A stretch of 64,000 nt of DNA, taken from an uncultured Piscirickettsiaceae bacterium (GTDB lineage Bacteria; Pseudomonadota; Gammaproteobacteria; GCF-002020875). Of the stretch, positions 17,911-53,615 are shown one piece after another; within the stretch, counting starts at the first letter, position 1, and every line of letters starts with the position of its first letter. The position numbers and the translations under genes are program-made. The stretch is from assembly GCA_964344325.1 (NCBI GenBank), contig CAYFMX010000001.1, positions 202,233-266,232 of the forward strand. The letters run 5' to 3'. The notes under the pieces are model-generated. The model was not told the DNA's origin. It ran no database searches and was given only the letters and a program-made list of their open reading frames with translations.

Positions 17911-18074
17911 TTAATAAATTCAAACTACCTAATTATGATTTGAAATATTTTTTCAAGCGATTGCCCTGTCAAAATTAGTTAAATTATAGCGATTCTCCGA
18001 TGAACAACCTATAATTATGCCGTTTGTTTTTTCAGTTTTTCTATACCTTCCAGACGAGATTTCACCTTTTGGCT

Positions 18075-19082: not shown

Positions 19083-19146
19083 ATGTTTTTTAACAAATAT
19101 TCAAGCAGCAGAAAAAATCAACCGAATTAAAACCGGGTTTCTAACT

Positions 19147-19536
19147 ATGAAAATCTCAGCACCAATTTCCATTGGAGAATTAATGGATAAAATAACGATT
19201 CTTGAGATCAAACTAGAACAATTCCAGGAACGATCCAAACTGGAAAATGTAAACAAAGAGATGACTGCGCTCAAGGAAAAACTATTCAAGAAGAATGTGG
19301 ATATTGAACAAATTGAAGAAGAAGTACATAAACTCAAACAGATCAATATTCAATTGTGGGAAATTGAAGATGCAATTCGTCTAAAGGAATCAAAAAAAGA
19401 ATTTGATGAAGAATTTATTGAATTAGCACGCTCTGTCTATTTCACAAATGATGAACGTGCGGAAGTAAAAAAAGAAATCAACTTAAAACTTGATTCTGAG
19501 TTAGTAGAGGAAAAATCCTACGCAGACTACGCATAA
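19147..19536 (+). CDS. hypothetical coiled-coil protein
   Basis: 129 aa, highly charged (E/K-rich) with heptad character, no recognisable catalytic motif; wedged between two GT9 genes. Confidence 0.4.
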   Translation: MKISAPISIGELMDKITILEIKLEQFQERSKLENVNKEMTALKEKLFKKNVDIEQIEEEVHKLKQINIQLWEIEDAIRLKESKKEFDEEFIELARSVYFTNDERAEVKKEINLKLDSELVEEKSYADYA

Positions 19537-19548
19537 ACTCAAATCAAT

Positions 19549-21380: not shown

Positions 21381-22605
21381 GTTTTCTCGACATCATCGTT
21401 GCAATTGGAATCAATAAAAAAAGTAGAAAAACTCCCGGTGGCGATGAACGTGATAACCAATTTTGACTTAAACCAAATACTGCAAAAGAGACCAATGCCA
21501 TCATACCTATCATAATCCAAACATGATCTTGCTCTTCTGTATCCTGATTTATTTTTCTCCAAAGATAGAAAAAAGGAATTCCAAAAACACCTATCATGAT
21601 ACTTAGAAAACCTAATATGCCGGTTGTTGCTAAGAATTCTATGTATAAGTTATGCGCTTCTCCATAATTAGATATTTGTGCGTAACGTATATTATATTCT
21701 GCTAGTATTTTTTTATCTATATAATAGTCACCTAAGCCAGTACCAATCCACGGATTATCTTTCCAAATCTCAATTGCTGCTTCGGACATTAAAAGTCTTT
21801 GACCTACAGAACCTTCAATTTTTCCTTCCAGATAATTGGAAGATTCAACTTGTGCCTGATCCCAACGGTTTTTTACAGAATCCGGAAAAGCAAATATCAT
21901 TATTGTCAATGTTGTAAAAAATGTGAATAACAATATTATTGTATTTTTTCTCCACATTTTAAATTTCAATATACCCCAAATCATCAATAAAACTGCTGGG
22001 GGTAATGCAATCCATGCGCCACGCGTTCCTGAATAAAATGCCGCTGCAATTGCAAACAGTGAGGAAATTAAAGCCAATCCTCGGAACCAAAAAGTTTGTT
22101 GAGAAAAAAGAGCAACTGCTAGAGCCGAAAGCCCTATCACCATTGCGTAATCTCCATATAAAATAGAATTATACGATCCAACAGCAGTCTTTCCTGTACT
22201 CCATAAAAGATAAAATAAAATAGGCCCTGCTAGTAATATACCAATAGAAAAAAATCGACCTATTTGACCGCCAACTTTCCGTAGCATCAAATATGCTGGA
22301 ATCACAAACAAGAAACGCGCAACCCTTTCAAAACGTTTCATACTATTATGCATATCATCTACATTAATATAGCTGATGATTGATGCAATACATATCCCTA
22401 AAAAACCTAATAACAGCCATTTTTCCCATGAATCTAAATATTTCCATTCTGACCATGAAAAAAACAGGCCAAACAATGCAATTAATAAAACTGCTCCACT
22501 ACCTATACCTTTTACTATTGTCATCGCGACTGGAAAAATAACCACCAAACTAAACAGTATTATTTTTAAAAACTGCATACTATTTTTTTCGAACAGATAA
22601 TTCAC
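21361..22605 (-). CDS. O-antigen ligase family membrane protein (WaaL-like)
   Basis: 414 aa, about 10-12 TM helices, periplasmic loop with conserved Arg/His (GTRGAWIA...H), within the core-LPS cluster. Confidence 0.65.
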   Translation of the reverse strand: MNYLFEKNSMQFLKIILFSLVVIFPVAMTIVKGIGSGAVLLIALFGLFFSWSEWKYLDSWEKWLLLGFLGICIASIISYINVDDMHNSMKRFERVARFLFVIPAYLMLRKVGGQIGRFFSIGILLAGPILFYLLWSTGKTAVGSYNSILYGDYAMVIGLSALAVALFSQQTFWFRGLALISSLFAIAAAFYSGTRGAWIALPPAVLLMIWGILKFKMWRKNTIILLFTFFTTLTIMIFAFPDSVKNRWDQAQVESSNYLEGKIEGSVGQRLLMSEAAIEIWKDNPWIGTGLGDYYIDKKILAEYNIRYAQISNYGEAHNLYIEFLATTGILGFLSIMIGVFGIPFFYLWRKINQDTEEQDHVWIMIGMMALVSFAVFGLSQNWLSRSSPPGVFLLFLLIPIATMMSRKREIQSK

Positions 22606-23690
22606 TCTAAAATCTCTAAATACTCTTGAACTTCTCTTTCTTTCCTAAATAATTTTCTTGCTAGACCAATGTTTTCTATAGACTTTTCTTTTTCATACTT
22701 TATTTTAGAACAGACATCATAAAGAGTCTTATGTAACTCTATTTCATTTCTATTTTCCACAGCATGCCCATAAAAACCAAGGGAAAATATTTCTGGAATT
22801 GTAGTATTATCATAAGCAATGCAAACTAATCCACATCCTAATGATTCTGCTAAAACATTACCAAAGCCTTCACCGGAAGTTGGATATAAAAATACATCAT
22901 AATCTTGTAATTTACTAATAATATTCTCCACATGACCTAAAAATTTTATTCTATCTTTATAGTTAGTTAAAAGAGAAGTGTTTTTTAATTCTCGAAGATA
23001 TTCTTCTTCATCAAAATTTCCAATCAAATATAAATTGAATGGAATATTGTTTTCATAAAGTATCTGACATGCTTGAATAGCATCATCCTGTCCTTTACCT
23101 CTTGCAATTCTACCAACATGAACAACTTTAATTATCTTGTTAGTCTTTTCATGAGAAATTTCTGTTTTTTCTGAATATTGAAAAGAAGGATAAATTAATT
23201 TTATTTTCGAACTAGAGGAAATAGGAAATATATTGCGCACATTCCTTTTTAAATGATTGCTAATCACCACATGCCAATTAACACAGCTATACATCCATGT
23301 ATGAAACCAATCTTTCTTGCTATGCGACATAGTTGTGCCATGTCGAATGATGACATTCACACCTTTACCAATCAATCCAAAATAAATAGATTTTATTTCT
23401 GAAGTTCCAAAAAATATTATATTTTTTATATTTTCTGTAAAAACAAGGTCTCTTATAAAAAAAATCAATCTAAAACTAAAGTGTGACCGAAAATCACACG
23501 ACTTTACGCTAATTAAAGAAGAAATTTTTTTATCTTTTAGAATACGTTCTCTTATGTAGCTTTTATTTTTACATCCGACATATAACTTTCCGTATGGACT
23601 TAATTTTTCTGCCAAACGAACTGAATCAATCTCCATTCCTCCTTTTCCCATAGAAAAACAAAGGATTGCGGTATTGCCTATCTTATCCAT
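22602..23690 (-). CDS. GT4 family glycosyltransferase
   Basis: 362 aa, C-terminal EGFGNVLAESLGCGLVCIA motif of GT-B GT4 enzymes. Confidence 0.75.
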   Translation of the reverse strand: MDKIGNTAILCFSMGKGGMEIDSVRLAEKLSPYGKLYVGCKNKSYIRERILKDKKISSLISVKSCDFRSHFSFRLIFFIRDLVFTENIKNIIFFGTSEIKSIYFGLIGKGVNVIIRHGTTMSHSKKDWFHTWMYSCVNWHVVISNHLKRNVRNIFPISSSSKIKLIYPSFQYSEKTEISHEKTNKIIKVVHVGRIARGKGQDDAIQACQILYENNIPFNLYLIGNFDEEEYLRELKNTSLLTNYKDRIKFLGHVENIISKLQDYDVFLYPTSGEGFGNVLAESLGCGLVCIAYDNTTIPEIFSLGFYGHAVENRNEIELHKTLYDVCSKIKYEKEKSIENIGLARKLFRKEREVQEYLEILE

Positions 23691-23697
23691 TTTCTAT

Positions 23698-24720
23698 TCA
23701 TATAACATGAGAAGGAGAAATATTATTTAAACATTTCAAATGCTTAAAATAGCATTTTCGATCAAAACAAGGACTACATTCCAAACCCAAATAATATACC
23801 TTTTTTCTCCCCGTTAACGGCGGTGTATATTCTGGCGTAGAAGAACCATAAATCGCAATCACCTCCGTCCCCACTGCCGCTGCAACATGCATCAATCCGG
23901 AATCATTGGTAATCACTTTTTCGCACGCAGAAAGCAAATCAACCGCATCTTCAATGCGCGTCTTTCCACACAAATTAATCAGTGTTCGTTGTGAAATCTC
24001 AAAAATTTTTTCTCCAGCTTGGAAATCTTTTTTTGATCCTAAAATGATGACCTGATTCCCTTGATCAAACAATTTCTGACCCACTTCTGCAAAATACTCT
24101 AATGGCCACTGTTTTGCTGGACCATATTCTGCCCCCGGCAATAGTGCAATAATCTTCTTTTCTGAATAATCAAGATGATACTCTTTCTTTAAATTTTCTC
24201 TATTTTGCAAATCAATTTGTAGTTTTAGGAAAGGTACATTTACCTCTTTTTCAATTTCTTCTATGGTTTCTTTATCTGGAGCCAACGCCACATAGCGTTG
24301 CACGGTCTGTTTTAGACGGATTTTGTCCAATTCACGAATATCATTCAATAATCCATAACGCATTTCACCGCGATACCCCGTGCGTTGTGGAATCTTGGCA
24401 AAAAATGGAACCAATGCCGACTTCCAAGAACGCGGAATCACAATCGAACGATCATATTTTTCTGCACGTAATTTTTTTCCTAACTGCCGACACGCTTGTA
24501 ATCCTAATTTTCCATGTGGAACATCCAACGCAATCGCATTGGTCACTTCAGGCATCCGCTGAACAACGGGTAATGACCACGTCGGCGCAACGACATCAAT
24601 TTGCAGGTCTTCTAGAGTTCTATTTTTCTCTTTTTCTTGCTGTTGCAAAGTGATGCAGAGGCTTTGCATCATCACCATATCTCCAATCCAAGAAGGCCCA
24701 ACAATCAGGATTTTTTTCAT
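23698..24720 (-). CDS. waaF: ADP-heptose:LPS heptosyltransferase II WaaF
   Basis: 340 aa, long collinear similarity to E. coli RfaF (KILIVGPSWIGDMVM, GEMRYGLLND, LLPGAEYGPAK, VITNDSGLMHVAAA). Confidence 0.85.
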   Translation of the reverse strand: MKKILIVGPSWIGDMVMMQSLCITLQQQEKEKNRTLEDLQIDVVAPTWSLPVVQRMPEVTNAIALDVPHGKLGLQACRQLGKKLRAEKYDRSIVIPRSWKSALVPFFAKIPQRTGYRGEMRYGLLNDIRELDKIRLKQTVQRYVALAPDKETIEEIEKEVNVPFLKLQIDLQNRENLKKEYHLDYSEKKIIALLPGAEYGPAKQWPLEYFAEVGQKLFDQGNQVIILGSKKDFQAGEKIFEISQRTLINLCGKTRIEDAVDLLSACEKVITNDSGLMHVAAAVGTEVIAIYGSSTPEYTPPLTGRKKVYYLGLECSPCFDRKCYFKHLKCLNNISPSHVI

Positions 24721-24827: not shown

Positions 24828-25793
24828 TCAAGCGTTTAAAATGTCCAGATAATTCTGAACCCCTGCATTCACATCCAGAAATTCTTTCGCATAGCCCACG
24901 TTACGTAACGCAGACATATCTGCTTCTGTGAAACTCTGGTATGCGCCCTTCAAATGATCTGGAAACGGAATGTATTCAATTCTTCCATTCTGTCCCTGCG
25001 CTTGATGCCATGCAACCACTGCATTTGCCATGTCGTTGAAGGATTGTGATTTTCCGGTTCCCAAATTGAAAATCCCGGATTTTTCCGGATGACCCAAAAA
25101 CCAAAGGTTCACATCAACCGCGTCCCCAACGTAGACAAAATCGCGCCGCTGCTCGCCATCTCCATATCCATCACAACCTGCAAACAATTTCGCAACCCCA
25201 TTGTCCAAAATCTGGTTGTTAAAGTGAAACGCTGTGCTCGACATCGTTCCTTTATGCTGCTCCCGCGGCCCATAAACATTGAAATAGCGGAAACCAACTA
25301 CCTGGCTGTTCTGCGCTGCAATTTCCGGCTGCAGTCGACGTACATACTGATCAAACTGAAATTTGGAATAGGCGTACATATTGATCGGCTTTTCGTGCTG
25401 CCGATCTTCCTTGAATACCGCGCCGCTACCATATACCGACGCAGAAGAAGCATACAAATACTGCGCCTTGTTCCTCAGACACCAATGGAGCAACGATTTG
25501 GAATATTCGTAGTTGTTTTCCATGATGAACAACCCATCCCACTCTGTTGTCGCGGAACACGCGCCCTCATGGAAAATCGCCTGTACATTCCCGCCAAATT
25601 TTTCACCCATTTCAACCCGTTCGATGAAATCGTGACGATCCATATAGTCAGCAATATCCAGATCGGAAAGATTGACCATCTTCCGACCATTTTTCAGGTT
25701 ATCGACCACCAAAATGTCGCGCTCGCCGCGCTCGTTCAACGCTTTGACAATATTGCTACCGATAAATCCGGCTCCGCCTGTCACAATAATCAT
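24828..25793 (-). CDS. hldD: ADP-L-glycero-D-manno-heptose-6-epimerase HldD
   Basis: [14 protein letters not shown] Rossmann start, SDR-type epimerase; start taken at the internal Met rather than the MSRCCCK extension. Confidence 0.85.
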
Positions 25794-25809
25794 TTTTTTT
25801 ATCTTTTCC

Positions 25810-28800
25810 TTACAACAGCACCTGCTCAATGCCGTCGTCTGCTTTGATTTTTTTCAGGAATTTCTGCTGCCACTTTTCACCATGCAGGCGACGCGCCAAC
25901 TCCACCACCACATAATCAACACCTAATCCGGTTGACTCTTCATAACGCATCAGCCCTTGCTGGCAAGAAGGGCAACTAGTAAGAATTTTCACCTTGTCGC
26001 GTAAACCAACTTGCTCTTTCCCAATCAATGATTGGATACCTGTCTTTAATTCACGTTCTTTGCGAAATTTCACCTGCGTTGCAATATCAGGGCGGCTGAC
26101 CGCAAATGTTCCTGATTCGCCGCAACAACGGTCTGACAGCAACACGTCCTGCCCCATCAACGTGGAAACGGTTCGGACTGCATTCGTCGCCTTCATTGGC
26201 GTATGGCACGGATCGTGATACAGGTAATTTCCTGCATTATTTTTCTTACCAGCATCATCAGTTTCGAGCGTAACACCCTTCGCACGCAAATATTCGTGAA
26301 TATCCATCAATTTGCAATCGGGGAAAATCTGCTGGAATTCGTATTGCATCAACTGATCCATACAAGTTCCGCAAGAGACCAGCACCGTGCGAATATCCAG
26401 ATAATTCAGCGTATTGGCAATTCGGTGAAACAGTACCCGGTTGCCCATCGAAATTTGATGGCCTTGTTTCTCCTGCCCGGCTGCGCGTTGCGGGTAACCA
26501 CAGCAGAGATAACCCGGCGGCAAAATCGTCTGCACATCCAGCGCATAGAGCATGTTCAAAACTGCCAGCTCGACTTGCCCAAACAAACGCTCCGCGCCAC
26601 AACCCGGGAAAAAGAAAACTGCTTCCGAATCATCGGTTGTCGTTTTTGGATTGCGCAAGATCGGCACATAGCGTGGATCTTCCAAGCCCAGAATCGCACG
26701 TGGCATTTTGCCGCCGATCTTCTCGCCCGGCATCGGATGGCGTAGAAAATGAACCAACTGTTCCTGCAATTTCGGTGGTTCAGTCGTCGCCGTCGGACGC
26801 GGACGGGCGCGAAATTTCAGCAACGAACGCGTCCATTGATGCGCCAACCGCTGCATCCGATAACTAAACTGCACCAACCCCATCCGCATCAGCCGGATTG
26901 ACCCCGGATTGGTCGCATTCAAAAACCGCATCGACATCCAGTGTGCCGGACTTGATTTGCGCTTACCAAGCTTCTTCAGTACGGTGCGCATCTGCATCGT
27001 CACCTTGCCGAAATCAATATTGACCGGACATTTCGCCTCGCATCGGTGGCAAATTGTGCAATGGTCAGCGATATTGTTCATCTCGGTAAAATGGCGGAAT
27101 GAAATCCCCCGGCGCGTTTGTTCTTCGTAGAGTACTGCTTCAATCATCAAACCGGTTGCCAAGATTTTGTTACGCGGTGAATAGAGCAGATTCGCCGCAG
27201 GGACATGTGTCGTACAGACCGGCTTACACTTGCCGCAACGCAGACAATCCTTGATCGACTGGTTCATGTTGCGGAGATCGTTCGCCTCCAGAATCAACGC
27301 CTCTTGCTGAACAAGCTGCAATGATGGCGTATAGGCATTTTCCAGACCGGAATCGCGCATCAATTTGCCGCGATTGAAGTGGCCTTTCGGATCAACCGCT
27401 TGTTTATACTGCGCAAACGCGTCAATTTCCGCATCATCCAGATAACCGATTTTGGTCAATCCGATCCCGTGCTCACCGGAAATGACCCCGCCGAGTGAAC
27501 AGGCCAACTCCATGATCCGGTCAACAACCCGCTCTGCCTCCTGCAACATTCCGTAATCATTGGAGTGCACCGGAATGTTGGTGTGGACGTTGCCATCCCC
27601 GGCGTGCATGTGCGTCGCGACAAACAACCGCCGCGCTTTGACACTGCTGTGAAATTCATTGATTTTATGGCGAATTTCTTCCAGATTTCGCCCGGAAAAG
27701 AGTTCGCGTAACGGTTTTTCAATCTCCTCTTTCCAGGAGACGCGCAACTCTCGTCGTTGCAAGATTTGAAACAGCGTATCTGCGCCCGGATCAAAATCAA
27801 GCAGATGCTGGTGACGTGAAGCAGGCTCGTCCATCTTCTCCAGAAAGAGTGACCAGCGCGTTTGCACCTGTTTGAGATGGTCGGCTGCAAGCTGTTCTTT
27901 ATCCACAACAATTTTGTGGTATTCCTCGCCCTCTTCCGCTTCCAGACGCTCGCTAATCTGGCGCAACTGTTTGGAGAGGAACCCCAGCAATTGATCAATC
28001 CCGTCCAGTTTGTTCTGGATCGATTGCTCAATGTTGATGCGCTCAATTCCTTCCGCGTAATCGGCCAGACGTTCCAGCGGAATCACCACATCTTCGTTGA
28101 TTTTGAACGCATTGGTGTGTGCAGCAATCGCTGCAGTACGTGCCCGCTCTGCCCAGAATTTGCGCCGTGATTCCGGACTTTCTGCAATAAACCCTTCGCC
28201 ATCCCGTGACTGCGCAATCGCGACAACCGCTTTTGCCGCTTCGGACACGTTCTCTTCGTTTTCGCCACCAATATCAGCCAACAATACCATCCGCGGCAAA
28301 GTTGGGCGTGCCGCTTTGGTGGTGTATTTGACTGCCTTGATATAGCGTTCGTCGAGATGCTCCAGACCGATCAACGCCACACCATCCGTCTGTTTCAGTA
28401 GGTCAATCGTCTCGACAATCGCTGGAACCGCATGATGCAAATCCGAGCCAAAAAACTCCAGACAAACCGTCTGCAACACGCTGGATTGGCGATGCAGCAT
28501 AAAACGTGCAGAAGTGATTAAGCCATCACAACCCTCTTTTTGCGCTCCGGGTAATCCTTCCAGAAATTTTCGGGTCACATCCTTACCAAGACCGGGACGG
28601 CGCATTTTCTCGGTTGGGATTTTCAGGACATTGGGTTTGCCCTTGAACTGTTTTCCATCTCGCTCCAATGGCTGGACGCGAAATTCTGCATAGGGCGCAT
28701 CATGGAGTTTGCCGCGATTGTGGTTGAGCCGTTCAATCAGAATCCACTCTGCATCCGGCGTCACCATCTTCCAAGAAATCAGGTTATCAAGCGCCGTTCC

Positions 28801-44420: not shown

Positions 44421-44454
44421 ATAGTGCTTGCGCGATATTCTATCTGTAGCCTTC

Positions 44455-44550
44455 CTATTTTTTATTCGCGTGCCTTACTGATTCCCAAACTACAATTCCC
44501 ATACCAATCAGAAAAATTGCCGTGATTAAAACAACCATCAAAAACTTCAT
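44455..44550 (-). CDS. 31-aa single-TM peptide (translationally coupled to the upstream ORF)
   Basis: Manual translation MKFLMVVLITAIFLIGMGIVVWESVRHANKK; its ATG overlaps the TAA of the 85-aa ORF (TAATG). Confidence 0.35.
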   Translation of the reverse strand: MKFLMVVLITAIFLIGMGIVVWESVRHANKK

Positions 44551-44807
44551 TACAACTCCTCCAATTGATCAATTTTCTTGTAAGCAAAATGGTTGATTCC
44601 TACGATGGACAACGTCACCAAAAAAGAAATACCGCCAATCAGAAACAGAAGCTTCCATGTAATTTGCTCCCAATTTTGAAACAACCAACCAATCAACGAC
44701 ACATCTATCGCAACCAGCAAGATATATGTCGCTTTCAACCAGCCAATCTCCTCTTTGATTTTCTCTGATCTCGACACGCTTTTCTCCATAAACTTCAAAA
44801 TCAGCAT
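44550..44807 (-). CDS. 85-aa two-TM small membrane protein
   Basis: ORF with two hydrophobic helices and a charged N-terminus; AT-rich accessory context. Confidence 0.4.
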   Translation of the reverse strand: MLILKFMEKSVSRSEKIKEEIGWLKATYILLVAIDVSLIGWLFQNWEQITWKLLFLIGGISFLVTLSIVGINHFAYKKIDQLEEL

Positions 44808-44881
44808 TGTACCTCAAACGTAAAAGAGCAAGCCCGCAGACCTGCCCTTCAATGGTAAATTTCGCAATCAATCACCAAATA

Positions 44882-45472
44882 TCAGAGCACTACAATCACC
44901 TGATTGCTCGGCAATGAACTGCCCACACTATTTTGCGCCACAACCTGATAGGCGACCTCTTCCCGTACTGGCTGATCCTGCAAGATGATTTCGCGGTCAA
45001 TCGCAACCTCTTCCGATCTCCCATCACGCACAATTCGGTAGTGAACCACTTTTCCACCATCGTTTGGCTCTTTCCAGCGCAGTGCAACCACGCCGGATAA
45101 AATCCGCTCTGCGGTCAATGTTCTGGGCTGTCCGGGAACCTTCGGCGCAGCACGCAAGTTGCGTCCGCCCCAACCGATCAAATTCAACTTAATATCATCA
45201 TTGCCGACCGTATTTTCTGCATAATTGATCGCGCTTCGCGCCATTGCTGCCAACTGCTCCAGATCGCCATTCTTTTTGGCAACCATCGCCTTTGCCAAGG
45301 CCTGCTGTGCAATCGTAGTCTCACGGGATGCATCAAATTCTGCAATGAGATCTTCAATTTCTTCCGGCGTGTTGGGCGGGGAAGGATACAAATCCACATT
45401 GTTCCGCAGCCCTTCTGCAAGGGAAGCAGCCAGTGCCCGTATTTCCAGCTCTTTTTTCGGGAAAACCGCCAT
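44882..45472 (-). CDS. hypothetical protein with C-terminal fibronectin type III-like domain
   Basis: 196 aa; helical N-half, C-terminal beta-rich FN3-like segment (PGQPRTLTAERILSGVVALRWKEP...). Confidence 0.45.
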   Translation of the reverse strand: MAVFPKKELEIRALAASLAEGLRNNVDLYPSPPNTPEEIEDLIAEFDASRETTIAQQALAKAMVAKKNGDLEQLAAMARSAINYAENTVGNDDIKLNLIGWGGRNLRAAPKVPGQPRTLTAERILSGVVALRWKEPNDGGKVVHYRIVRDGRSEEVAIDREIILQDQPVREEVAYQVVAQNSVGSSLPSNQVIVVL

Positions 45473-45693
45473 AATGACCTCCTAGTGACTCATCTATCTG
45501 ATACGCAGATCGTATTGGATAGAGATCATAAAGAGACGGAAAACCTTTTTAAAACAGAATGTTTTTATGGACGGAGAATATTTTCTTGTTGGTGGATGAA
45601 GTTGCAAAACAGTAGAATTCCCAGCTTTTTTAAGAAACAAACTCCTGCCAATAAACAAACGAAATTCTCTTGAAATTAAAGGGTATTGAACGA

Positions 45694-46773
45694 CTAAGGT
45701 ACTGCATTATGGCTGCATGGACGACATCGAGGACCTAACTCAACTCCCTGATATTTATATACTATCTCTTTTGCTTTAGTAACAACATCTCTCAACATTC
45801 CTTCATCGGGCGGACATCGACTACGAAGAGGAGTTGCTGGATCAGGACGAAATGGACTAAGAACTGGATCACAACCCCTTTCAGCCAAAGCTCTAATACC
45901 TTCCAGAGTCGATTCAATGCTTTCTAGTCCGACAAGTAGAGATGAACGAACACGCCCTACACCAAAAACTTCCACTGCCTGCTCAATAAATTCAAGATAG
46001 CACTCCCTAGATAATCCATACTTACGAGGAGTTATCTTTCTGGCTATTTGCTCATCAAAAACTTCAATATTTATTGATAAACCATAAATTCCTATGCGTT
46101 TAAGAAAATTTAAGTCAAGTAAGTCAGGATAAGGAACCATCATCACATCAATTTCAAGGTCAGGATAATAATTGCAGGTTGTCTCATAAACTTGTTGTAG
46201 ATACGAATAGTCTTCAACTTTAGGTGTTCCACCTGAGATCAACACATGACGTGGTGACAATTGTGGATCTTCTATCGCGACTCGGAGCGCATCCATCATT
46301 CGATCAATTGGATTTAGACGATATTTAGATGTGTAAGGTAAATCACAAAACGTACAGGTAATTGCGCATCCGTCCACCGGAGAGATACGCGCCCTATCTG
46401 CGTGTGTGTTTACATACTGAGTAAATGGCTCGCCCCATTGATTCAGTTTCCCATGATACGCAGGAACAGGAATTGGTGAAGCCATAATATTAGTATTAGG
46501 CCCAACCACGAAAAAACTACCACTGTTTGTCACAAGTTGATAAATTGGTTTTGTAACAAAGTTGTAATTATAATCGATGAAAGGTGTATTGACCCACACT
46601 TCTTGATTACGCATTGGATCAAATAGCTTTAGTGTAATTCCGTTTGTAGTAGCATAGTCTCCAGTAGTTAATTGATCAGTTCCCCAAATTTTGAAAAGCT
46701 CTGTGCGTGCATCTTGAGTAATCTCAATCCCTTTCGAATACAACGATAGTTTTAGAAATTCAATATTATTCAT
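45694..46773 (-). CDS. radical SAM enzyme
   Basis: 359 aa, CxxxCxxC cluster (CAITCTFC) after an N-terminal domain of about 130 aa, glycine-rich SAM-binding segment (ISGGTP); start overlaps the stop of the upstream NTPase gene. Confidence 0.75.
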   Translation of the reverse strand: MNNIEFLKLSLYSKGIEITQDARTELFKIWGTDQLTTGDYATTNGITLKLFDPMRNQEVWVNTPFIDYNYNFVTKPIYQLVTNSGSFFVVGPNTNIMASPIPVPAYHGKLNQWGEPFTQYVNTHADRARISPVDGCAITCTFCDLPYTSKYRLNPIDRMMDALRVAIEDPQLSPRHVLISGGTPKVEDYSYLQQVYETTCNYYPDLEIDVMMVPYPDLLDLNFLKRIGIYGLSINIEVFDEQIARKITPRKYGLSRECYLEFIEQAVEVFGVGRVRSSLLVGLESIESTLEGIRALAERGCDPVLSPFRPDPATPLRSRCPPDEGMLRDVVTKAKEIVYKYQGVELGPRCRPCSHNAVP

Positions 46774-48917
46774 TATTGTTCAGATTTAGTTTGCGAACCA
46801 CACGATATAATTTGATGCGCACTTGCATTAAGTAGTTTGGCACTACTTTGATCCCACATGCAATATTCAAACTTCGTTTCTTTGTTTGCAGAAATCACGC
46901 AACCATCAATGCTAACCAGTTGCTCCAAGCGAGCAAGCTGCACAGTAATATTATTAGACTTACCAAATGCAATAGCTGCTTTATCACTCTTATCGTGCTT
47001 CTGCTTAACCAACTCAGTAGGTCGTCCAACTTCTGAATCATAGTAAAAACTAACCTGGCATAATGTGGTTTCACCATCAAATGTTACATTTTCAAATCGA
47101 CAGCCCCTGAAATCAACTTGAGACTTTTCTTTAGCAATATCTATAAAGTCTGAGTCTTTGAATACACAGCACCAAAAAAGAACCCCTTGAAGATCGACAT
47201 TTCTAAATGTGCAATTGTCAAAGCTGATCCCTTTAAATATTGTTCCTTTGAAAGTCCATCCTGAAAAATCTATACCTGAAAACTCTGATAAATTCTGAAG
47301 TGATTTGAGATCTACATTTCCAATATCCGTAATGAAGGAACAACCCTGATAGAATTTAGCAGGTTGGAAATATGAGCTACTTAAATCTACTGACCCGCTC
47401 TGAAGCATAACATCTACTCCTACATTTTCTACAGGAGATGAGATACTATCTTCGAGCGTACCAAATATCTTTGACGCCCAATTACTTAATGCTGAACCTA
47501 AAAGATCATGAACTAGTTCAACACGCTTTCCTAAGCTATCTTCGCTATTATCATTATATGTCTTAAGAATATTCGCATTCTTAAGCACAGAAATGGTGTC
47601 ATTAAAATAAGATTCGATAGCCGATTGAGCATCTTCGTATATACCATATTTATTCATTAACTTCCGAGTATTGATCTCTTCATTTTCTATTAGCTTGTCG
47701 AGTAACTCCTTAGTGCGTATGGAAATCTTATAGTCACCAGCTGAAAGAAACGACGATATGCGTGCTGCTATCCAGCGAATATAGCCAACTCTACAAGACA
47801 TTTCAGTGTGATCACTATCACTGTTAAAGTCATTCAGCGACATTGTGATCCAACGTTCAAGTGCTTCAGAATAGACGAAAAGATAATCCTCTTCTTCCTG
47901 AGAATCTATGATGACTGATTGTTCATACCCCAATAGGTCTTCAATTAATACTCTTTTTTTCCCCTGTTTTTTAAGATACGAGAAAAACTCATAAGAAACA
48001 ACTTGTAAGGTGAGTAAGTTATTACTTCTGAAATCTAGTTTTTCTTCTATTCCTTTTTTCACCATAGAACAGTTCAGAATCAAACGATCTCTTGTATCTC
48101 TATCTAAGAATATATCTTCGCTCTCAAATGATTTTTCAATAATTAAGCCAACCTGCTTTGTGACACCATTCTGATCCGTAGAAGGTATAGCCTTGAGGAA
48201 ATATGCTCTGCGCATGATACTTCCTACCTCATGATCAAGGAAACGAAGTGCATGTAAATACTCTTCACGCAGAGAGATAAGAATACGAACTTGTTTGTTT
48301 AAATAATATAAATCCTTGATTAATTCTATTATTTCATTGCTTTCTTGCAACCTAGACCTAAATAGCTCCTCTAATTGGTCAAAAATTAATATTACTCCAC
48401 CATATTGCCTAACCAGTGACATAACGCTGGCGACAAACAGTTCGTTCTGGGCTCTGCTCCTAGCTTCATCTATCAATTGAGCTTTCTCCAGTATTCCACT
48501 TGCGATTTGGTAATCATTATGGTTCTTGAAGTCGGCTTCTTCCGGTGTTTTTTCAGGGTTAAGTCGTTCTATTGCTTCTGCCAAACTCATCCAGAGGTAT
48601 GTACGTAAATCAGCACTATTTGCGACTCCACCCCAGTCTCGAAATACAAGCACAGGGAAGGGATAGATAATTTTTTCAGAAGAATTTTCCAGAGATGCAT
48701 TTCGACGTTTTCCGAGTTCAGGTATTAAGCCAGCTCTCAGAAGCGATGTTTTACCAGCAGCACTTTCACCTGCTAAAACGTTAAGCTGCCAAAGCACCAT
48801 ATTCTGTATAAGTTCACCAATTTCTTTCTCACGGCCAAAAAAACGGGAATGGTGTCTCTCCTCATATGGAGTAGCACCCACAAATGGATTTGTACTTAGA
48901 TCGTTAATTGTATTCAT
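46773..48917 (-). CDS. STAND-type NTPase with C-terminal pentapeptide repeats
   Basis: 714 aa; FFGREKE-x-Walker A (GESAAGKTSLLRAGL), Walker B ILIFDQLEELF, large helical middle region, C-terminal pentapeptide-repeat beta-helix (DFSGWTFKGTIFKGISFDNCTFRNVDLQGVLF...). Confidence 0.7.
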   Translation of the reverse strand: MNTINDLSTNPFVGATPYEERHHSRFFGREKEIGELIQNMVLWQLNVLAGESAAGKTSLLRAGLIPELGKRRNASLENSSEKIIYPFPVLVFRDWGGVANSADLRTYLWMSLAEAIERLNPEKTPEEADFKNHNDYQIASGILEKAQLIDEARSRAQNELFVASVMSLVRQYGGVILIFDQLEELFRSRLQESNEIIELIKDLYYLNKQVRILISLREEYLHALRFLDHEVGSIMRRAYFLKAIPSTDQNGVTKQVGLIIEKSFESEDIFLDRDTRDRLILNCSMVKKGIEEKLDFRSNNLLTLQVVSYEFFSYLKKQGKKRVLIEDLLGYEQSVIIDSQEEEDYLFVYSEALERWITMSLNDFNSDSDHTEMSCRVGYIRWIAARISSFLSAGDYKISIRTKELLDKLIENEEINTRKLMNKYGIYEDAQSAIESYFNDTISVLKNANILKTYNDNSEDSLGKRVELVHDLLGSALSNWASKIFGTLEDSISSPVENVGVDVMLQSGSVDLSSSYFQPAKFYQGCSFITDIGNVDLKSLQNLSEFSGIDFSGWTFKGTIFKGISFDNCTFRNVDLQGVLFWCCVFKDSDFIDIAKEKSQVDFRGCRFENVTFDGETTLCQVSFYYDSEVGRPTELVKQKHDKSDKAAIAFGKSNNITVQLARLEQLVSIDGCVISANKETKFEYCMWDQSSAKLLNASAHQIISCGSQTKSEQ

Positions 48918-48962
48918 TTTATTAAAACCTGTGCAAACTAGAACAGTACTATATACACGATG

Positions 48963-50897
48963 TTAACGGCGTGTGAGATAAGATAGCGATCTGAAAAACA
49001 TATATAAATCGTCAGTTAGTGCAGGTTTAATATTGAGATTCTCACAATAAGCATGCTTTACCTCATCTTTAGACTGCATCACAGCGTATCGATGCCCATT
49101 TCTTTTATCATTCTGGCCTAGTGAAGGAGTCTCATTCTTACCTGTAGCCACTTGAAAATACAATTGTGAGCGTATATTCCAATCAGAAAGAGAATAGCCT
49201 AAAAACCAAAGACCGAATCTAGATCGTACAGTTTGTAGTGCAGCAAGAGGCATTTCGCGGCTAGTAGCTTCTGAAAGAACTTGGACATACCCACTTTCAG
49301 TGATGAGTGTCATATGGTTCCACCTAACTGAAGAAAATGGGCTCTGCTGCGGAATCTGTTCAGAAATGGAAGCAATATCAACGCTCGGTGCACCGTGTAA
49401 TTTCAATATAATTGGTCCTGGAATAGATTTATCATTGAGAATATTTTTTAAGCAATGACTCTGTGATTGTCCGCCTGACTGTGTATCACTATTTTCCGAC
49501 CGATCTTTACATATAATACTTGGTTCTAAACGGTGCACGCTATTTATTATAGTCTGTCGTACCCACGCAGTTTCTATCCCAGATGCACTATCTTGACTAC
49601 TATATTGACTAGAAGTGGAAATTTTTCCATCTAAATCTTGTGCCTTAGAAGAACTATCACCATCAAAGTGTATTTCCCGGTAAACTGGAAATAAAATATG
49701 AATAGCCCCCCATGGGGGATTTTCTACATTCATAAGAGCTATCTCAAGTGACTCATCATAGTTTGTTGTAAATAATAATGGAGGAATTTTTGGCTCGCAT
49801 GGATTATCCTTAATGCGTCGCTCGTTAGCTTGATACATCGCTTTTGTAACAGAAGCCAACGATTTATAGCCTGAACTTACAGGGAACAAATCTTTGGTTA
49901 TCCGGTGACAGTATGATATCCAGTTATCTATAACTTCAGAAACATGCTGTGGAAACATCTCTTGTTCACCATCCACGACAGCTAATGCCTCGGCAACCTG
50001 AGATAGTTCACCAACCACTCTGATTGGCTTTCCAGTTTTACGAAGAGTAAGTCGTAATGTTAATTCACGAGACGATGGTAGCAATGGATCGTCGAATCTG
50101 AACAAATGCCACAGAAAAGAAAATAACCATTGAATTTCATCGCCGAGAAAACTTAATTGCGAATCAGAGTATGCTCGCTTATTAACCGAATCAAATATTT
50201 CGACATGCTCGGGCGAAAAAAGATCAATCTCACCTCTTACTATTTTTGAAGCAAGATCTCTTAAAGCAGTTTCTATGCTTTCTGGGCACAATAAGAAGCA
50301 AATTTCGACATTTGTATCTTTTAAGAACTTCCTTATCTTAGTTGCATTCGATAGGCAATCATTTAATATCGAAACAGCTTCTCCTATACTTCGTTCGGGA
50401 ATAAGCAGTCTTGTATTAGGAAGCCAAGCAGTTAACGTGTTGCTATTTCTCGTTTGATCAGCAGCAACAGTATCTAAATAAACTAAGAATTTAAGAATAT
50501 TTTTTTGTAGTTGTATTAGTAACACTTCAAGTGGGCTTTCATCGAAAGCAATAGCCTCTGAACTATTAGCCCAGTTAGTATAAATCCCACACCAAGATAC
50601 CGTTTCTCTTCTTGCTTCAGAAAGGTAATTGATATCGGCAATGATATCGAGCAAGTGCTTTTCACTATCAGATGCAGAATATGATTTCAATCTGCCAAAT
50701 CGATATGCGCTAAGAGCTCCAGGTGCAGCCCGTAACATTTCGAAATCTTTATTATCAGATGATAATAGATTACTTATTACTTCAGGATCACGAAATGCTG
50801 AAACACCCGCACCTATGAAAGGAACAAAGCGCCCTGCTTCAACATCACGTCCTAAAAAACTGATCCATTCCTCCGTTTGCACTTTTGACACTCCCAT
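48963..50897 (-). CDS. SIR2-family (DHS-like NAD-binding) protein with large inserted middle region
   Basis: 644 aa; N-terminal FVPFIGAGVS (GAGxS) and C-terminal LWFLGYSLSDWNIR (GYSxxD) are the two hallmark motifs of the SIR2_2 family. Confidence 0.55.
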   Translation of the reverse strand: MGVSKVQTEEWISFLGRDVEAGRFVPFIGAGVSAFRDPEVISNLLSSDNKDFEMLRAAPGALSAYRFGRLKSYSASDSEKHLLDIIADINYLSEARRETVSWCGIYTNWANSSEAIAFDESPLEVLLIQLQKNILKFLVYLDTVAADQTRNSNTLTAWLPNTRLLIPERSIGEAVSILNDCLSNATKIRKFLKDTNVEICFLLCPESIETALRDLASKIVRGEIDLFSPEHVEIFDSVNKRAYSDSQLSFLGDEIQWLFSFLWHLFRFDDPLLPSSRELTLRLTLRKTGKPIRVVGELSQVAEALAVVDGEQEMFPQHVSEVIDNWISYCHRITKDLFPVSSGYKSLASVTKAMYQANERRIKDNPCEPKIPPLLFTTNYDESLEIALMNVENPPWGAIHILFPVYREIHFDGDSSSKAQDLDGKISTSSQYSSQDSASGIETAWVRQTIINSVHRLEPSIICKDRSENSDTQSGGQSQSHCLKNILNDKSIPGPIILKLHGAPSVDIASISEQIPQQSPFSSVRWNHMTLITESGYVQVLSEATSREMPLAALQTVRSRFGLWFLGYSLSDWNIRSQLYFQVATGKNETPSLGQNDKRNGHRYAVMQSKDEVKHAYCENLNIKPALTDDLYMFFRSLSYLTRR

Positions 50898-50913
50898 TGA
50901 ATTGGTATTTTAT

Positions 50914-52290
50914 TTAGAAAATAGATTTTATTTTTTGTATTTTATCTTGATATTCAAGAGTCAATTTACCATCAAGCTTGCTGACACTTTCATTCGTTTG
51001 AAAACGACATATTATTGCATTTGGATCCACTTTAATTCCAGATGGAGGTAGTACAGACAAAATACCATTAAATTCTCGTCCAACCTCTAGATTAATCTTT
51101 GGCTCAACCGGATTTTTCTCAAGATTACGAATCACTACATGACTCATCTCAGGCTGTTCTTCAACTAATTGACAAACATGCCTATCAGGAGGTGGACATA
51201 ACCCTAGATAAGCAGAAATATGTTCAATATACAAATCAGGCTGCCCGATTTGTTGATCAAGCAATGCTGCGACTGATGAAGAACCTTGAAAACGTGGATT
51301 AACCTCAACTAAATAGAGCTTATTTTCATAGATTAATGCATCAATACCGAATGCGCCTATATACCTTTCCTTATATAACCAATTGCCTACAAATCGCCCG
51401 AGTAAATCCAGTTCTCCTAAAAGTTCTGGCTCAATTCTTTTTATCAATCCAAAATCATTGCCACAATAGGAAAACGGATTTCTCGTAAGTGCAGGATCAC
51501 CTACAATTTGTATCGAAGGCCCATGGAGACGTACTTCCGATGTATTTGATGACTGCCCAGAAAATACACACCCATTTATACTTATAGGTATACTATCATG
51601 AATATATGGAGCAACCGAGCAGTATCCATCTCTATTATTTTCCAGTTTATCCCATATTTTATTTAAGCCATTTTCATTTTCTACTAGAAAAAGACCATTA
51701 CCACCGGTAGATCTATTTAACCTAACTACTAAAGAACCATTATTCAGCATCTCTTCAAGCATAGGTCTCGAAGAATCTGTTATTAGAAAATATTTCCAAT
51801 CAATAAAATTGATAGGAACTTGAATCTTATCTCGTTCTTTTTTTAACTCCGTCTCAACCCAAACTTTATGCTCAAATGCATTCTGACGTTCTTGAAAAAG
51901 ACCGGCGAATTGCGCATGATTTTCTCTTGGAAAAATTACTGAAGTTAAAACATTATATGGTCGATACGGAACAAGCACACAGCGTTGATCGACAGCTTTC
52001 GAAAGTAACTGCCATAATTCACAAACAGCTTTTTTTTCTACACTGTTAGAAGGCTTATCATCGACAGAATATGCATCAAGGTCAACTCTCCGCCCTGTTA
52101 ATGTCTCTAAGCATTGTCCTCCGATTCCAGGCCAATCATTAAGAGGCGAAATAATCGAAAACACATCTCCGAATTGCGGCAATTCCATCAGAGGCTTAGC
52201 ATCGCAACCTCGGGTGCCAAACCAAATGATCCGTTGCCCTTCAAGGGCAGACGAAAGAGTTTGGAGATAGTTGTGCCTAACATGCTCCAC
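50914..52290 (-). CDS. ATP-grasp family ligase
   Basis: 458 aa; glycine-rich loop GGNGLFLV, C-terminal LYLVEVNPRFQGSS (ATP-grasp E-x-N-x-R Mg-binding motif). Confidence 0.6.
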   Translation of the reverse strand: MEHVRHNYLQTLSSALEGQRIIWFGTRGCDAKPLMELPQFGDVFSIISPLNDWPGIGGQCLETLTGRRVDLDAYSVDDKPSNSVEKKAVCELWQLLSKAVDQRCVLVPYRPYNVLTSVIFPRENHAQFAGLFQERQNAFEHKVWVETELKKERDKIQVPINFIDWKYFLITDSSRPMLEEMLNNGSLVVRLNRSTGGNGLFLVENENGLNKIWDKLENNRDGYCSVAPYIHDSIPISINGCVFSGQSSNTSEVRLHGPSIQIVGDPALTRNPFSYCGNDFGLIKRIEPELLGELDLLGRFVGNWLYKERYIGAFGIDALIYENKLYLVEVNPRFQGSSSVAALLDQQIGQPDLYIEHISAYLGLCPPPDRHVCQLVEEQPEMSHVVIRNLEKNPVEPKINLEVGREFNGILSVLPPSGIKVDPNAIICRFQTNESVSKLDGKLTLEYQDKIQKIKSIF

Positions 52291-52385
52291 AGTAGTATTT
52301 ACCCCTTTAATATCTAAAATCTGTTAGTCTTTGATAAAGCTATTTCACGCACGATTCTTAAAAAAACCCAAGGAATCTAATGTAA

Positions 52386-53615
52386 ATGAACAACCCCAAA
52401 CAACTAGGCCCACATCCCACGGGGGGATGGATTTCAGAAGATGAAGCACTTATTTTTGAATTCCATAAAAAATTACCTGAATGGCTACTAGATATAACAC
52501 CACCTTGCTTTATTTATGACCTCGAAAAATTTCGAGAAGAAATCAAAACCATATTAGATACATTCCCACAGTACCGTTACCCATTGAAGTGTAATCCTCA
52601 TCCATCATTACTCGCTACTGTGTTGTCATTAGGTGCAGGGGTAGATGTTTGTTCTGTTGGAGAATTAGAAAAAGCCTTGATGGAAGATGCACCCGGTCAC
52701 TTAATTAATTACTGTAGCGTTTCTTATACTACTGCGCTCATCGACCATTTAGTGAGTATAGAAGCAACTGTCACACTAAACAACCTTGATGATCTACAAT
52801 TGATGTTAGCACGCCATCCTGCTCAGACACCAAGTTTACGTATAGAAGCAATTGATCCAAATACTCCTTATGGCGACAAATTCGGTTTTTCGATGAACCA
52901 ATGGAGCCATGTTGAGAAAATTTTGAATCAATATCAGACTTACTTGAGTGGTTTGCATATTCACACTTCTCATTCTCCTGATATAAACCAACTTACTCAA
53001 CGTTTATCCCCATTACTAGTAGCATTAGAAAGGTTAAAAGATTGGGTTCCAAAAATGCATTTTCTCAATCTAGGTGGAGGATGGCCTATGCTTTATGGTG
53101 CCCAGTTTCATTCTGTAACTGCGAAAGATTTTGAAAAAATTTTAGAAAAAGACTTCCTACCGAAAGCCAAGAAACTCGGCTTTAAGGGCGAAGTGTTAGT
53201 TGAACCTGGGGAATATGTAACTTCATCTATGGGATACTGGGTGGCTGAAGTCACTGGGGTTAAAAAAAACGAAATAAATTTACCAATAGTCTTCGCAAAT
53301 ACTCCAGGAGTAGTTCCATCAGCAGAGATTGCATATCCAACAGCATTATTTCGAAAATGCAAAGCTGGCTGGGAAAGAGTCCAAAATGAATTAGTCACTG
53401 TCAAAATTGTTGCAGCAACAAATTCCCCATTCGATACGATTCGCCCTACAGTAATGCTACCAATGCCTCAAGCTGGTGATCGGCTGGTATTTGGACAAAC
53501 TGGAGCATATCTACCTTGTTTGATGGGAACCTTTAATAGTATTCCGGCTCCCCACACATACATTGTCCACAAAAATACCTCTTCTCCTATTTCCCACCCC
53601 CGATCCTACACTTGA
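52386..53615 (+). CDS. fold-type III PLP-dependent decarboxylase (Orn/DAP/Arg decarboxylase family)
   Basis: 409 aa; YPLKCNPHP (PLP-lysine K-C-N motif), GAGVDVCSVGELE, C-terminal beta-sandwich with the GAY motif; divergent from the ATP-grasp gene. Confidence 0.7.
   Translation: MNNPKQLGPHPTGGWISEDEALIFEFHKKLPEWLLDITPPCFIYDLEKFREEIKTILDTFPQYRYPLKCNPHPSLLATVLSLGAGVDVCSVGELEKALMEDAPGHLINYCSVSYTTALIDHLVSIEATVTLNNLDDLQLMLARHPAQTPSLRIEAIDPNTPYGDKFGFSMNQWSHVEKILNQYQTYLSGLHIHTSHSPDINQLTQRLSPLLVALERLKDWVPKMHFLNLGGGWPMLYGAQFHSVTAKDFEKILEKDFLPKAKKLGFKGEVLVEPGEYVTSSMGYWVAEVTGVKKNEINLPIVFANTPGVVPSAEIAYPTALFRKCKAGWERVQNELVTVKIVAATNSPFDTIRPTVMLPMPQAGDRLVFGQTGAYLPCLMGTFNSIPAPHTYIVHKNTSSPISHPRSYT

Follow-up and report, generated by a model that had tools for sequence, protein, structure and literature searches.

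NLR-like STAND ATPases, which resemble nucleotide-binding leucine-rich repeat (NLR) receptors, are thought to sense phage proteins directly in bacterial defence. Among them, Avs5 (AVAST type 5) combines in one polypeptide a SIR2 NADase and a STAND ATPase whose C-terminal repeats act as sensor, an arrangement from which NAD+ depletion and abortive infection would be expected. Thoeris, CBASS and Pycsar share a different architecture, in which a constant signal-making module is combined with interchangeable effectors, SIR2 and TIR NADases included. TIR, CD-NTase or cyclase enzymes synthesise the signals, which are nucleotide- or ADP-ribose-derived and are received by SLOG, SAVED, Macro or CARF domains; to our knowledge, small-molecule immune signalling is known only for messengers of these two chemical kinds. 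Features reminiscent of both groups are found together in a five-gene island which spans positions 45694-53615 of a 64,000-nucleotide stretch of DNA, hereafter called the window, from an uncultured Piscirickettsiaceae bacterium (contig CAYFMX010000001.1). The island codes for a STAND nucleoside triphosphatase (NTPase), a SIR2-like protein, a radical S-adenosylmethionine (SAM) enzyme, an ATP-grasp enzyme and a pyridoxal 5'-phosphate (PLP) decarboxylase. Comparative analyses indicate that it is very probably one copy of a conserved functional unit, and its gene content makes a role of the system in conflict or defence likely. A more specific reading, according to which STAND and SIR2-like proteins carry out abortive infection under the control of a metabolite made by the linked enzymes, may be proposed tentatively.

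The island is made of five intact open reading frames (ORFs), organised as follows.

45694-46773, minus strand, radical SAM gene (ORF of 359 aa)
46773-48917, minus strand, STAND NTPase gene (ORF of 714 aa)
48963-50897, minus strand, SIR2-like gene (ORF of 644 aa)
50914-52290, minus strand, ATP-grasp gene (ORF of 458 aa, GTG start)
52291-52385, no strand, divergent intergenic region of 95 bp separating the ATP-grasp gene from the decarboxylase gene, presumably with promoters for both
52386-53615, plus strand, PLP decarboxylase gene (ORF of 409 aa)

The domain assignments made for the five genes in the initial annotation of this DNA were all confirmed by Pfam, and the four-gene minus-strand operon was described there exactly as it is, with 16 bp between the ATP-grasp and SIR2-like genes, 45 bp between the SIR2-like and NTPase genes, and a TAATG stop/start with an overlap of 1 nucleotide between the NTPase and radical SAM genes. 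An AAGGAA ribosome-binding site precedes the ATG of the decarboxylase gene. The 95-bp spacer plausibly serves both transcription directions; a consensus promoter scan gave no match inside it, and the counts of a promoter and terminator scan were not above shuffled expectation. Searches with hidden Markov models (HMMs) assigned none of the island genes to housekeeping families.

The search for related loci was driven by ATP-grasp similarity alone, and the neighbouring families were counted by means of HMMs built on the neighbours. The best 80 of 323 loci from species-representative genomes were analysed, and 57 of these contain a full-length ATP-grasp orthologue. Gene calls in high-GC loci were obtained by a crude ORF heuristic, the family counts resting on HMM matches, and the gene calls of the public assemblies give the same picture of the loci. 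A radical SAM gene is found nearby in 44 of the 57 loci, an NTPase of the same nSTAND1 clade in 36, the same SIR2-like protein in 35, every time together with the STAND protein, and a transcarbamylase in 33. The same four families reside together in 35 loci distributed among about ten phyla, and their stop and start codons often overlap. Whenever the genes are co-directional, the ATP-grasp gene directly precedes the SIR2-like and STAND genes. The co-occurrence check suggested by the initial annotation thus came out in favour of linkage for four of the five genes.

Carriers include Acidobacteriota, Actinomycetota, Chloroflexota, Desulfobacterota, Gemmatimonadota, Syntrophales, Magnetococcus, Alpha- and Gammaproteobacteria, and others. 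Isolates among them are few, and include Fundidesulfovibrio agrisoli SG106, whose locus is at about 63.5-73.5 kb of contig JAKZKX010000006, Pseudolysinimonas yzui and Actinoplanes sp. KI2. Full-length homologues of the ATP-grasp protein number at least 300 and come from many phyla; when 1.84 billion representatives were searched with a profile, about 303 clusters (50% identity) were obtained at E<=1e-30. The radical SAM gene is the best conserved of the system (about 50% identity across orthologues), followed by the ATP-grasp gene (about 38%), with the STAND and SIR2-like genes reaching only 25-30%. No relatives of the system were found in the IMG/VR viral contigs, and the only plasmid matches are distant radical SAM proteins of the MSMEG_0568 family on Acinetobacter plasmids.

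All five genes are collinear in a Rhodospirillales metagenome-assembled genome (MAG) from marine sediment, represented by two equivalent loci, L002 and L089. Identities to the window proteins are 60% for the radical SAM enzyme, 49% for ATP-grasp, 44% for STAND, 43% for the decarboxylase and 35% for the SIR2-like protein. In L087, a short Logan contig, the decarboxylase gene is divergent from the ATP-grasp and SIR2-like genes. A linked decarboxylase has been identified only in these loci and in the window, and the two orthologues (43-44% identity) adjoin, and are divergent to, the ATP-grasp gene as in the island. The remaining matches of a metagenome profile scan were 21-29% identical, unlinked and generic DAP-decarboxylase-like genes, and a single-sequence metagenome scan for further loci of the decarboxylase type gave no match. 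Since the profile scan yielded no further linked copies, the decarboxylase variant is rare. The constant enzyme core of the system is the radical SAM and ATP-grasp duo, the usual third enzyme is the transcarbamylase, and the decarboxylase is a rare lineage-specific substitute for it that marks a rare sub-type. The decarboxylase gene at 74-1048 of L002 (6995-8031 of L089) aligns in one frame up to about residue 280, and the scan matched residues 1-401; a frameshift, due to an assembly error or to decay into a pseudogene, is probable.

The transcarbamylase is nearest to PyrB (221 bits, the cutoff being 237). Carbamoyl-phosphate motifs are kept, and the aspartate and ornithine acceptor motifs are both gone, which points to a non-canonical acceptor. 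One protein, P0099 (744 aa), is a natural fusion of ATP-grasp with transcarbamylase domains (Pfam OTCace_N and OTCace), and supports the notion of a common pathway for both enzymes. Another, P0254 (732 aa), carries an unannotated N-terminal extension of about 300 aa ahead of the ATP-grasp region.

The catalytic motifs of all five island proteins are intact. Those of the STAND and SIR2-like proteins are located as follows.

48744-48770, minus strand, Walker A motif GESAAGKTS of the NTPase (aa 50-58, with K56)
48366-48380, minus strand, Walker B motif DQLEE of the NTPase (aa 180-184)
C-terminal part of the NTPase gene, minus strand, pentapeptide repeats, the putative sensor (about aa 530-670)
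50799-50813, minus strand, GAGVS motif of the SIR2-like protein (aa 29-33)
49755-49769, minus strand, TTNYD motif of the SIR2-like protein (aa 377-381)
49392-49403, minus strand, KLHG motif of the SIR2-like protein (aa 499-502, with His501)

The NTPase belongs to the nSTAND1 clade on the basis of the Pfam score (PF20703, 82.1 bits against a cutoff of 27.1), the Walker motifs and the sensor arginine R217. Residues K56, D180, Q181, E183, E184 and R217 are kept in 35-36 of 36 STAND orthologues. The NTPase domain begins at aa 11, no N-terminal effector domain being present, and the C-terminus matches Pentapeptide and Pentapeptide_3 (38 bits for the latter). No DNA-binding domain was found among the Pfam matches of the protein. 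The orthologues at 13233-16349 of L083 and 7927-11043 of L084 are longer (1038 aa), and carry an FGE-sulfatase domain after the pentapeptide repeats. The FGE-sulfatase fold, which is C-type-lectin-like, is the usual target of diversity-generating retroelements. The nSTAND1 clade was defined in counter-invader systems (PMC8195603), and occurs in sensors diversified by such retroelements. The SIR2-like protein is a SIR2_2 member (PF13289, 45.8 bits against a cutoff of 24.5, aa 487-625), and features GAGxS, the catalytic asparagine and the catalytic histidine; it is predicted to be a NADase effector. About 340 aa are inserted between the Rossmann glycine loop and TNYD, and split the sirtuin fold. 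Neither protein has a sequence match in the Protein Data Bank.

The island is functionally closest to Avs5, from which it differs in several respects. The SIR2-like and STAND proteins are encoded by separate ORFs, 45 bp apart; the NTPase is of the nSTAND1 type, and neither a PADLOC Avs model nor a solved Avs structure matches it by sequence; the SIR2-like protein carries the large insert; biosynthetic enzymes do not accompany Avs5. With separate ORFs and no match to an Avs HMM, the island does not belong to AVAST type 5. The likeness to Thoeris, CBASS and Pycsar lies in the constant module and in the changing effectors, whereas the candidate synthase is here the radical SAM and ATP-grasp pair, and the candidate receptor is a STAND ATPase. 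Thoeris can be set aside, as the window proteins contain no SLOG, Macro or TIR domain and have no ThsA or ThsB match in PADLOC. The same applies to DSR1 and DSR2: no PADLOC match and no sequence match to solved DSR2 was obtained, and the SIR2-like protein is paired with a STAND protein. None of the five proteins is matched at E<=0.01 by the 5027 models of PADLOC-DB v2.0.0, nor are four STAND orthologues and one SIR2-like orthologue scanned from other loci. A full-text search of PubMed Central and bioRxiv found no paper describing the STAND, SIR2, radical SAM and ATP-grasp combination, and the association with ATP-grasp, radical SAM and transcarbamylase genes is in neither of two conflict-system papers of the Aravind laboratory, the source of nSTAND1. 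The system is apparently undescribed, in agreement with the initial annotation, which knew of no described system with this combination.

The effector side of the system is variable. Proteins encoded between the ATP-grasp and STAND genes are all homologous SIR2-like proteins, as the alignment of 33 orthologues shows, and in 35 of the 36 loci with STAND the SIR2-like protein is its constant partner, not a freely swapped effector. The GAGxS, TNYD and LHG motifs are kept in the proteobacterial, Syntrophales and several Acidobacterial copies, and in the window copy. In five loci (L003, L010, L012, L056 and L057) a TIR domain is fused N-terminally to the SIR2-like protein, the fusions matching Pfam TIR_2 at 1-110 and SIR2_2 at about 510-700; the SIR2 histidine is changed into arginine in three of the five. 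The Actinomycetota copies have lost both asparagine and histidine (TSFD and RLSG), and a gene for a CHAT protease is added upstream of the ATP-grasp gene. The enzyme duo also resides in loci which lack STAND. In L040 it is found with an AAA-like NTPase and a TIR protein resembling PDC-S66/ThsB, in L031 with an AAA-like NTPase, a calcineurin-like phosphoesterase and a leucine-rich repeat (LRR) protein. Slowly evolving, constant enzymes facing a variable effector side are best accounted for as the signature of a conflict system.

The motifs of the three enzymes map as follows.

46345-46368, minus strand, CX3CX2C cluster motif of the radical SAM enzyme (aa 136-143, C136-x3-C140-x2-C143)
51280-51306, minus strand, intact Mg/ATP motif of the ATP-grasp enzyme (E329-V-N331-P-R-F-Q-G-S)
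52578-52601, plus strand, YPLKCNPH of the decarboxylase with the PLP lysine K68, accompanied by GGGWP and EPGE motifs

The radical SAM protein is a member of its superfamily on three grounds, the CX3CX2C motif, the Pfam match (PF04055, 37.8 bits), and an AlphaFold2 model that superposes on radical SAM barrels. It also matches NCBIfam NF045502, 'variant_rSAM', with 126.9 bits against a cutoff of 125; all other NCBIfam matches of the island proteins are far below cutoffs. Cysteines C136, C140 and C143 are invariant in the alignment of 32 sequences. Residues C301, C350, C353 and H355 are invariant or nearly so in the same set (CRPCSH at 45709-45726), and their conservation hints at an auxiliary metal-binding or Fe-S site like those of LipA, BioB and HydG. 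The models of both enzymes of the duo are confident (predicted local distance difference test scores of 93.4 and 94.7), and the modelled radical SAM fold is of the LipA/MqnE/PylB-like class, with an N-terminal β-rich domain of about 120 aa which has no counterpart in structural alignments. No SPASM or RRE-type domain is present in the model. The ATP-grasp protein barely exceeds the Pfam threshold (ATP-grasp_3, 24.7 bits against 23.2). It falls into the small-molecule ligase and carboxylase branch of the superfamily, is PurK/PylC-like in fold, with PurK, PurD and PurT as closest folds, and is predicted to be a small-molecule ligase or carboxylase. The decarboxylase is a fold-type III PLP enzyme (Orn_Arg_deC_N, 81.3 bits), and K68, GGGWP and EPGE are kept in three orthologues. 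The nearest solved relatives are the lysine/ornithine decarboxylase 2plj (E 8e-14) and ornithine and diaminopimelate (DAP) decarboxylases. The protein is far under any equivalog cutoff, and is not LysA (111.7 bits, the lysA cutoff being 297.9).

None of the pathways with similar enzymes that were compared corresponds to the island. PylB and PylC resemble the duo at the level of the fold only: an amino acid is remodelled by a TIM-barrel radical SAM enzyme, and an ATP-grasp ligase couples it to an amine. The third enzymes of the present system come from families acting on amino acids or polyamine-type amines. Sequence identity is only 11-16%, a PylD-like gene is missing, and PylB has neither the extra N-terminal domain nor the additional conserved cysteines and histidine; no NCBIfam model for PylB, PylC or PylD was matched, and the pyrrolysine pathway (PylBCD) was discarded. 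The BtrJ/BtrK logic of butirosin, invoked in the initial annotation, shares an ATP-grasp ligase adjoining a fold-type III PLP decarboxylase. It is not supported here, as no acyl-carrier protein gene (the equivalent of BtrI) lies in or beside the island, the decarboxylase is dispensable and absent from most orthologous loci, and the ATP-grasp enzyme is paired with a radical SAM enzyme, which has no role in Btr chemistry. The analogy to viperin drawn on the same occasion did not survive either. Prokaryotic viperins (pVips) are radical SAM enzymes that make a small molecule, ddhNTP, in antiviral defence, and work alone or with a kinase, not with ATP-grasp, STAND and SIR2 proteins; no model of the family matches the island protein. 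The nearest named radical SAM family is MSMEG_0568 (TIGR04043), likewise found in conserved clusters. The match is partial and, at 70 bits, far below the cutoff of 303.7; the Acinetobacter plasmid proteins are about 25% identical over 70% of their length, and the neighbours differ. The ATP-grasp enzyme does not belong to those of graspetides or other peptides made by the ribosome and modified after translation (RiPPs). Ophion, with a different gene set (radical SAM, PHP and phosphoribosyltransferase), and the adenosyl-ornithine chemistry of the sinefungin type, which relies on unrelated B12-dependent radical SAM enzymes and PEARL ligases, were ruled out.

The reading tentatively preferred is that the island is a horizontally acquired copy of a conflict system, active in antiphage defence through abortive infection. 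The nSTAND1 ATPase with the pentapeptide-repeat C-terminus would be both sensor and switch, and the separately encoded SIR2-like protein the executioner, depleting NAD+ after STAND activation. NAD+ depletion is suggested because the SIR2-like protein always accompanies STAND and, in the window, keeps NAD-binding and catalytic residues. The radical SAM and ATP-grasp enzymes, together with the decarboxylase here and the transcarbamylase in most lineages, would build an amino-acid-derived small molecule. That the enzymes make a small molecule is probable, and an amino-acid-like building block as product is hinted at most strongly by the presence of the enzyme set inside a mycobacterial nonribosomal peptide synthetase (NRPS) cluster, described below. 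The molecule would in turn be the ligand gating the STAND protein. STAND ATPases such as MalT are ligand-gated, and a ligand is proposed because signalling defences are likewise built from an unchanging synthase and effectors that can be exchanged. Two modes of action may be envisaged. The ligand could be an alarm signal made upon infection. Alternatively, it could be a constitutive 'all is well' ligand, whose loss, for instance through depletion of SAM or ATP by a phage, would free STAND. The assignment of the metabolite to the STAND protein specifically is a doubtful step. The idea of a defence system provided with an enzyme-made molecule had been put forward in the initial annotation, and still fits best with variable effectors and constant enzymes; the trio of enzymes assumed there must be reduced to the constant duo.

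Several observations weigh against the picture just drawn. The window copy lies between housekeeping genes, no defence island being recognisable and neither mobility genes nor flanking repeats being present. Eleven of the 57 ATP-grasp loci lack a radical SAM gene in the fetched flank, some of them on short contigs. Because no PADLOC model matches any component, the case for defence is drawn from architecture. A STAND protein with a repeat sensor and an effector partner is by itself a complete Avs-like system, and a ligand is not obviously needed. The loss of catalytic residues in the Actinomycetota SIR2-like proteins implies that NAD+ cleavage is not a universal output. Finally, the occurrence of the enzyme set in an NRPS context suggests ordinary constitutive metabolism rather than signalling triggered by infection.

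The main rival reading is a defence with two arms, in which the STAND protein senses a phage protein via the repeats, and the radical SAM and ATP-grasp enzymes make an antiviral antimetabolite, an amino-acid or nucleotide analogue, and no signal. Radical SAM enzymes have precedents in defence, viperin and Ophion, the latter being proposed to interfere with nucleic acids. Ribonucleotides are the substrates of PurK, PurD and PurT, whose ATP-grasp folds are the nearest; several accessory genes have a nucleotide or base flavour (RaSEA-like radical SAM, QueC-like, PHP phosphoesterase, BluB/FbiB-like nitroreductase); and the mycobacterial product probably feeds an NRPS, suggesting a bioactive building block. 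A toxin made constitutively would nonetheless need self-immunity, and no candidate gene is conserved. Moreover, the tight and often overlapping order of ATP-grasp, SIR2-like and STAND genes suggests physical or functional coupling. The two-armed scheme appears unlikely on balance.

The mycobacterial loci deserve attention in their own right. In Mycobacterium szulgai and M. angelicum, genes for the transcarbamylase, a nitroreductase, the radical SAM enzyme, the ATP-grasp enzyme and an amidase are lodged between two NRPS genes, with neither STAND nor SIR2-like genes. The clusters are found at 2652-19622 of L023 (M. szulgai DSM 44166) and in L033 (M. angelicum DSM 45057); the NRPS proteins measure 1325 aa (C-A-T-TE) and 2212 aa (A-T-C-A-T-R), and the nitroreductase is BluB/FbiB-like. 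The product of the enzyme set is probably used as a building block by the NRPS. The arrangement raises the question whether the island as well is part of a natural-product cluster, which directs the formation of a secondary metabolite that is secreted or stored. The STAND and SIR2-like proteins would then regulate production or protect the producer, and would not sense phages. In line with this, tailoring genes vary among loci (methyltransferase, nitroreductase, FAD-oxidoreductase-like, hexapeptide acyltransferase, Zn-dehydrogenase, decarboxylase), and one locus adjoins a LanM lanthipeptide synthetase. The STAND protein, unlike regulators of the LAL, MalT and SARP types, lacks a DNA-binding domain, and partners of the SIR2, TIR, CHAT, calcineurin-like and LRR kinds typify conflict systems and not pathway regulators. 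Transporter and resistance genes are not conserved among the loci. A natural-product cluster seems rather improbable.

A still lower probability is given to the modification of a protein or peptide, in which ATP-grasp would add an amino acid and the radical SAM enzyme would act on a residue of a repeat, the target being a peptide, the STAND protein or the SIR2-like protein, in a manner similar to graspetides or to repeat effectors matured by radical SAM enzymes. The ATP-grasp gene always adjoins the SIR2-like gene, and a precedent is available in phage defence, the HXS system, in which a radical SAM enzyme is said to mature an effector made of HxS repeats. The radical SAM model lacks SPASM and RRE-type domains, as noted above, and no conserved small ORF that could encode a RiPP precursor was found across at least 40 loci. 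Transcarbamylase, decarboxylase and NRPS contexts point rather to free small molecules. A chance meeting, in the same variable region, of a STAND-SIR2 defence pair and an unrelated pair of metabolic enzymes can practically be discounted: variable regions do gather defence and accessory genes, the enzymes lack this STAND in 9 of the 57 loci and the mycobacterial copies are STAND-less, yet the joint presence of the four families over 35 loci and about ten phyla largely refutes it, the STAND clade beside the enzymes aligns end to end with invariant motifs, and STAND-less loci still hold other sets of NTPases and effectors.

If the preferred reading, gating of STAND by an enzyme-made metabolite, were true, a conserved NLR-like ATPase and a NADase tied to radical SAM and ATP-grasp chemistry would join direct sensing and small-molecule signalling. 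The system would provide the first ligand-gated bacterial NLR with a dedicated ligand synthase of its own, and would add an immune metabolite or antiviral compound of a new class. A role would also be assigned to two sizeable uncharacterised enzyme families, one with more than 900 radical SAM homologues, the other with about 300 clusters of ATP-grasp proteins (50% identity). A new branch of immune signalling, in which a non-nucleotide, amino-acid-derived ligand made by radical SAM and ATP-grasp enzymes controls an NLR-like STAND protein, and this unleashes a SIR2 NADase (TIR or CHAT elsewhere), is a conjecture to be held with considerable doubt. The system might also guard the SAM and ATP status of the cell against SAM-degrading enzymes of phages. 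The use of the same enzymes by mycobacterial NRPS clusters offers an independent handle on the chemistry, and cultured carriers (Fundidesulfovibrio agrisoli SG106, Pseudolysinimonas yzui, Mycobacterium szulgai and M. angelicum) make the system tractable.

The base composition sets the island apart from its surroundings. The GC content is 38.2%, against 46.6% for the rest of the window, and GC at third codon positions (GC3) of the five genes ranges from 0.26 to 0.31. The AT-rich contrast pointed out in the initial annotation is real, the value given there, in the mid-30s, being slightly low. The flanks are made of conserved housekeeping genes, as anticipated on the same occasion and verified by Pfam (MgtE, RsfS, the SPOUT protein RlmH, RNase G and YhdP). 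The mgtE, rsfS and rlmH flanks have a GC content of 52-54% and a GC3 of 0.56-0.63, and GC3 is 0.53-0.63 across the ptsI-like gene (phosphotransferase system enzyme I), mgtE, orf196, rsfS, rlmH and rng. In most hosts tested the GC content of the system is below that of the flanks, for example 0.365 against 0.51 in L037. The window copy is tentatively read as horizontally acquired; the system is rare and spread over multiple phyla. Neither an integrase, nor an adjacent tRNA, nor flanking direct repeats were found at the island, and the Rfam scan of the window detected two unrelated tRNAs only.

Low GC is not unique to the island, because a lipopolysaccharide (LPS) core/O-antigen cluster is equally AT-rich. 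This second block, at 18024-24720 of the window, has a GC content of 0.32-0.39 in 2-kb windows, and encodes three heptosyltransferase-like proteins of glycosyltransferase (GT) family GT9, a GT2, a GT4 (weak 'GT4-conflict' match) and a Wzy_C O-antigen ligase. The gene for a NAD-dependent epimerase at 24828-25829 belongs with it. Between mgtE and the island (44421-45693) there is an AT-rich gap at 44.5-44.9 kb (GC about 0.42), where short ORFs have no family match. The adjacent orf196 (196 aa, 44882-45472, minus strand) has a normal GC content and a sub-threshold fibronectin type III match at the C-terminus. Its composition is unlike that of the island, and the L002 contig ends before the corresponding place.

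Other loci provide further observations. Conflict genes of other kinds neighbour the system in some hosts, among them those of L037, with an HNH protein, and of L007, with a SngC/BrxH-like helicase-HNH. In F. agrisoli SG106 (L082, 1-7488), the region directly upstream of the system encodes a stand-alone TIR_2 protein (146 aa), an FtsH-like AAA+/Peptidase_M41 protein (864 aa), a RelA_SpoT and RyR protein (849 aa), and two proteins devoid of known domains (240 and 567 aa). The set resembles a further conflict system, one of the FtsH-ternary type, adjoining the present one. Accessory genes linked to the enzymes vary from locus to locus, and include a BluB/FbiB-like nitroreductase, a RaSEA-like second radical SAM enzyme, a methyltransferase, a hexapeptide acyltransferase and a FAD-oxidoreductase-like protein. 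A paralogous cassette occurs in MAGs from sediment and archaea, at 2193-11332 of L085 and L086, 10000-15500 of L069, and about 10000-10900 of L058-L081. It comprises a second type of radical SAM enzyme (383 aa), a small ATP-grasp-like protein (about 170 aa, with a 120-aa partner), QueC-like and methyltransferase proteins, and a PLP decarboxylase 22-25% identical to that of the window. In L085 the cassette adjoins a radical SAM and ATP-grasp pair of the type found in the window.

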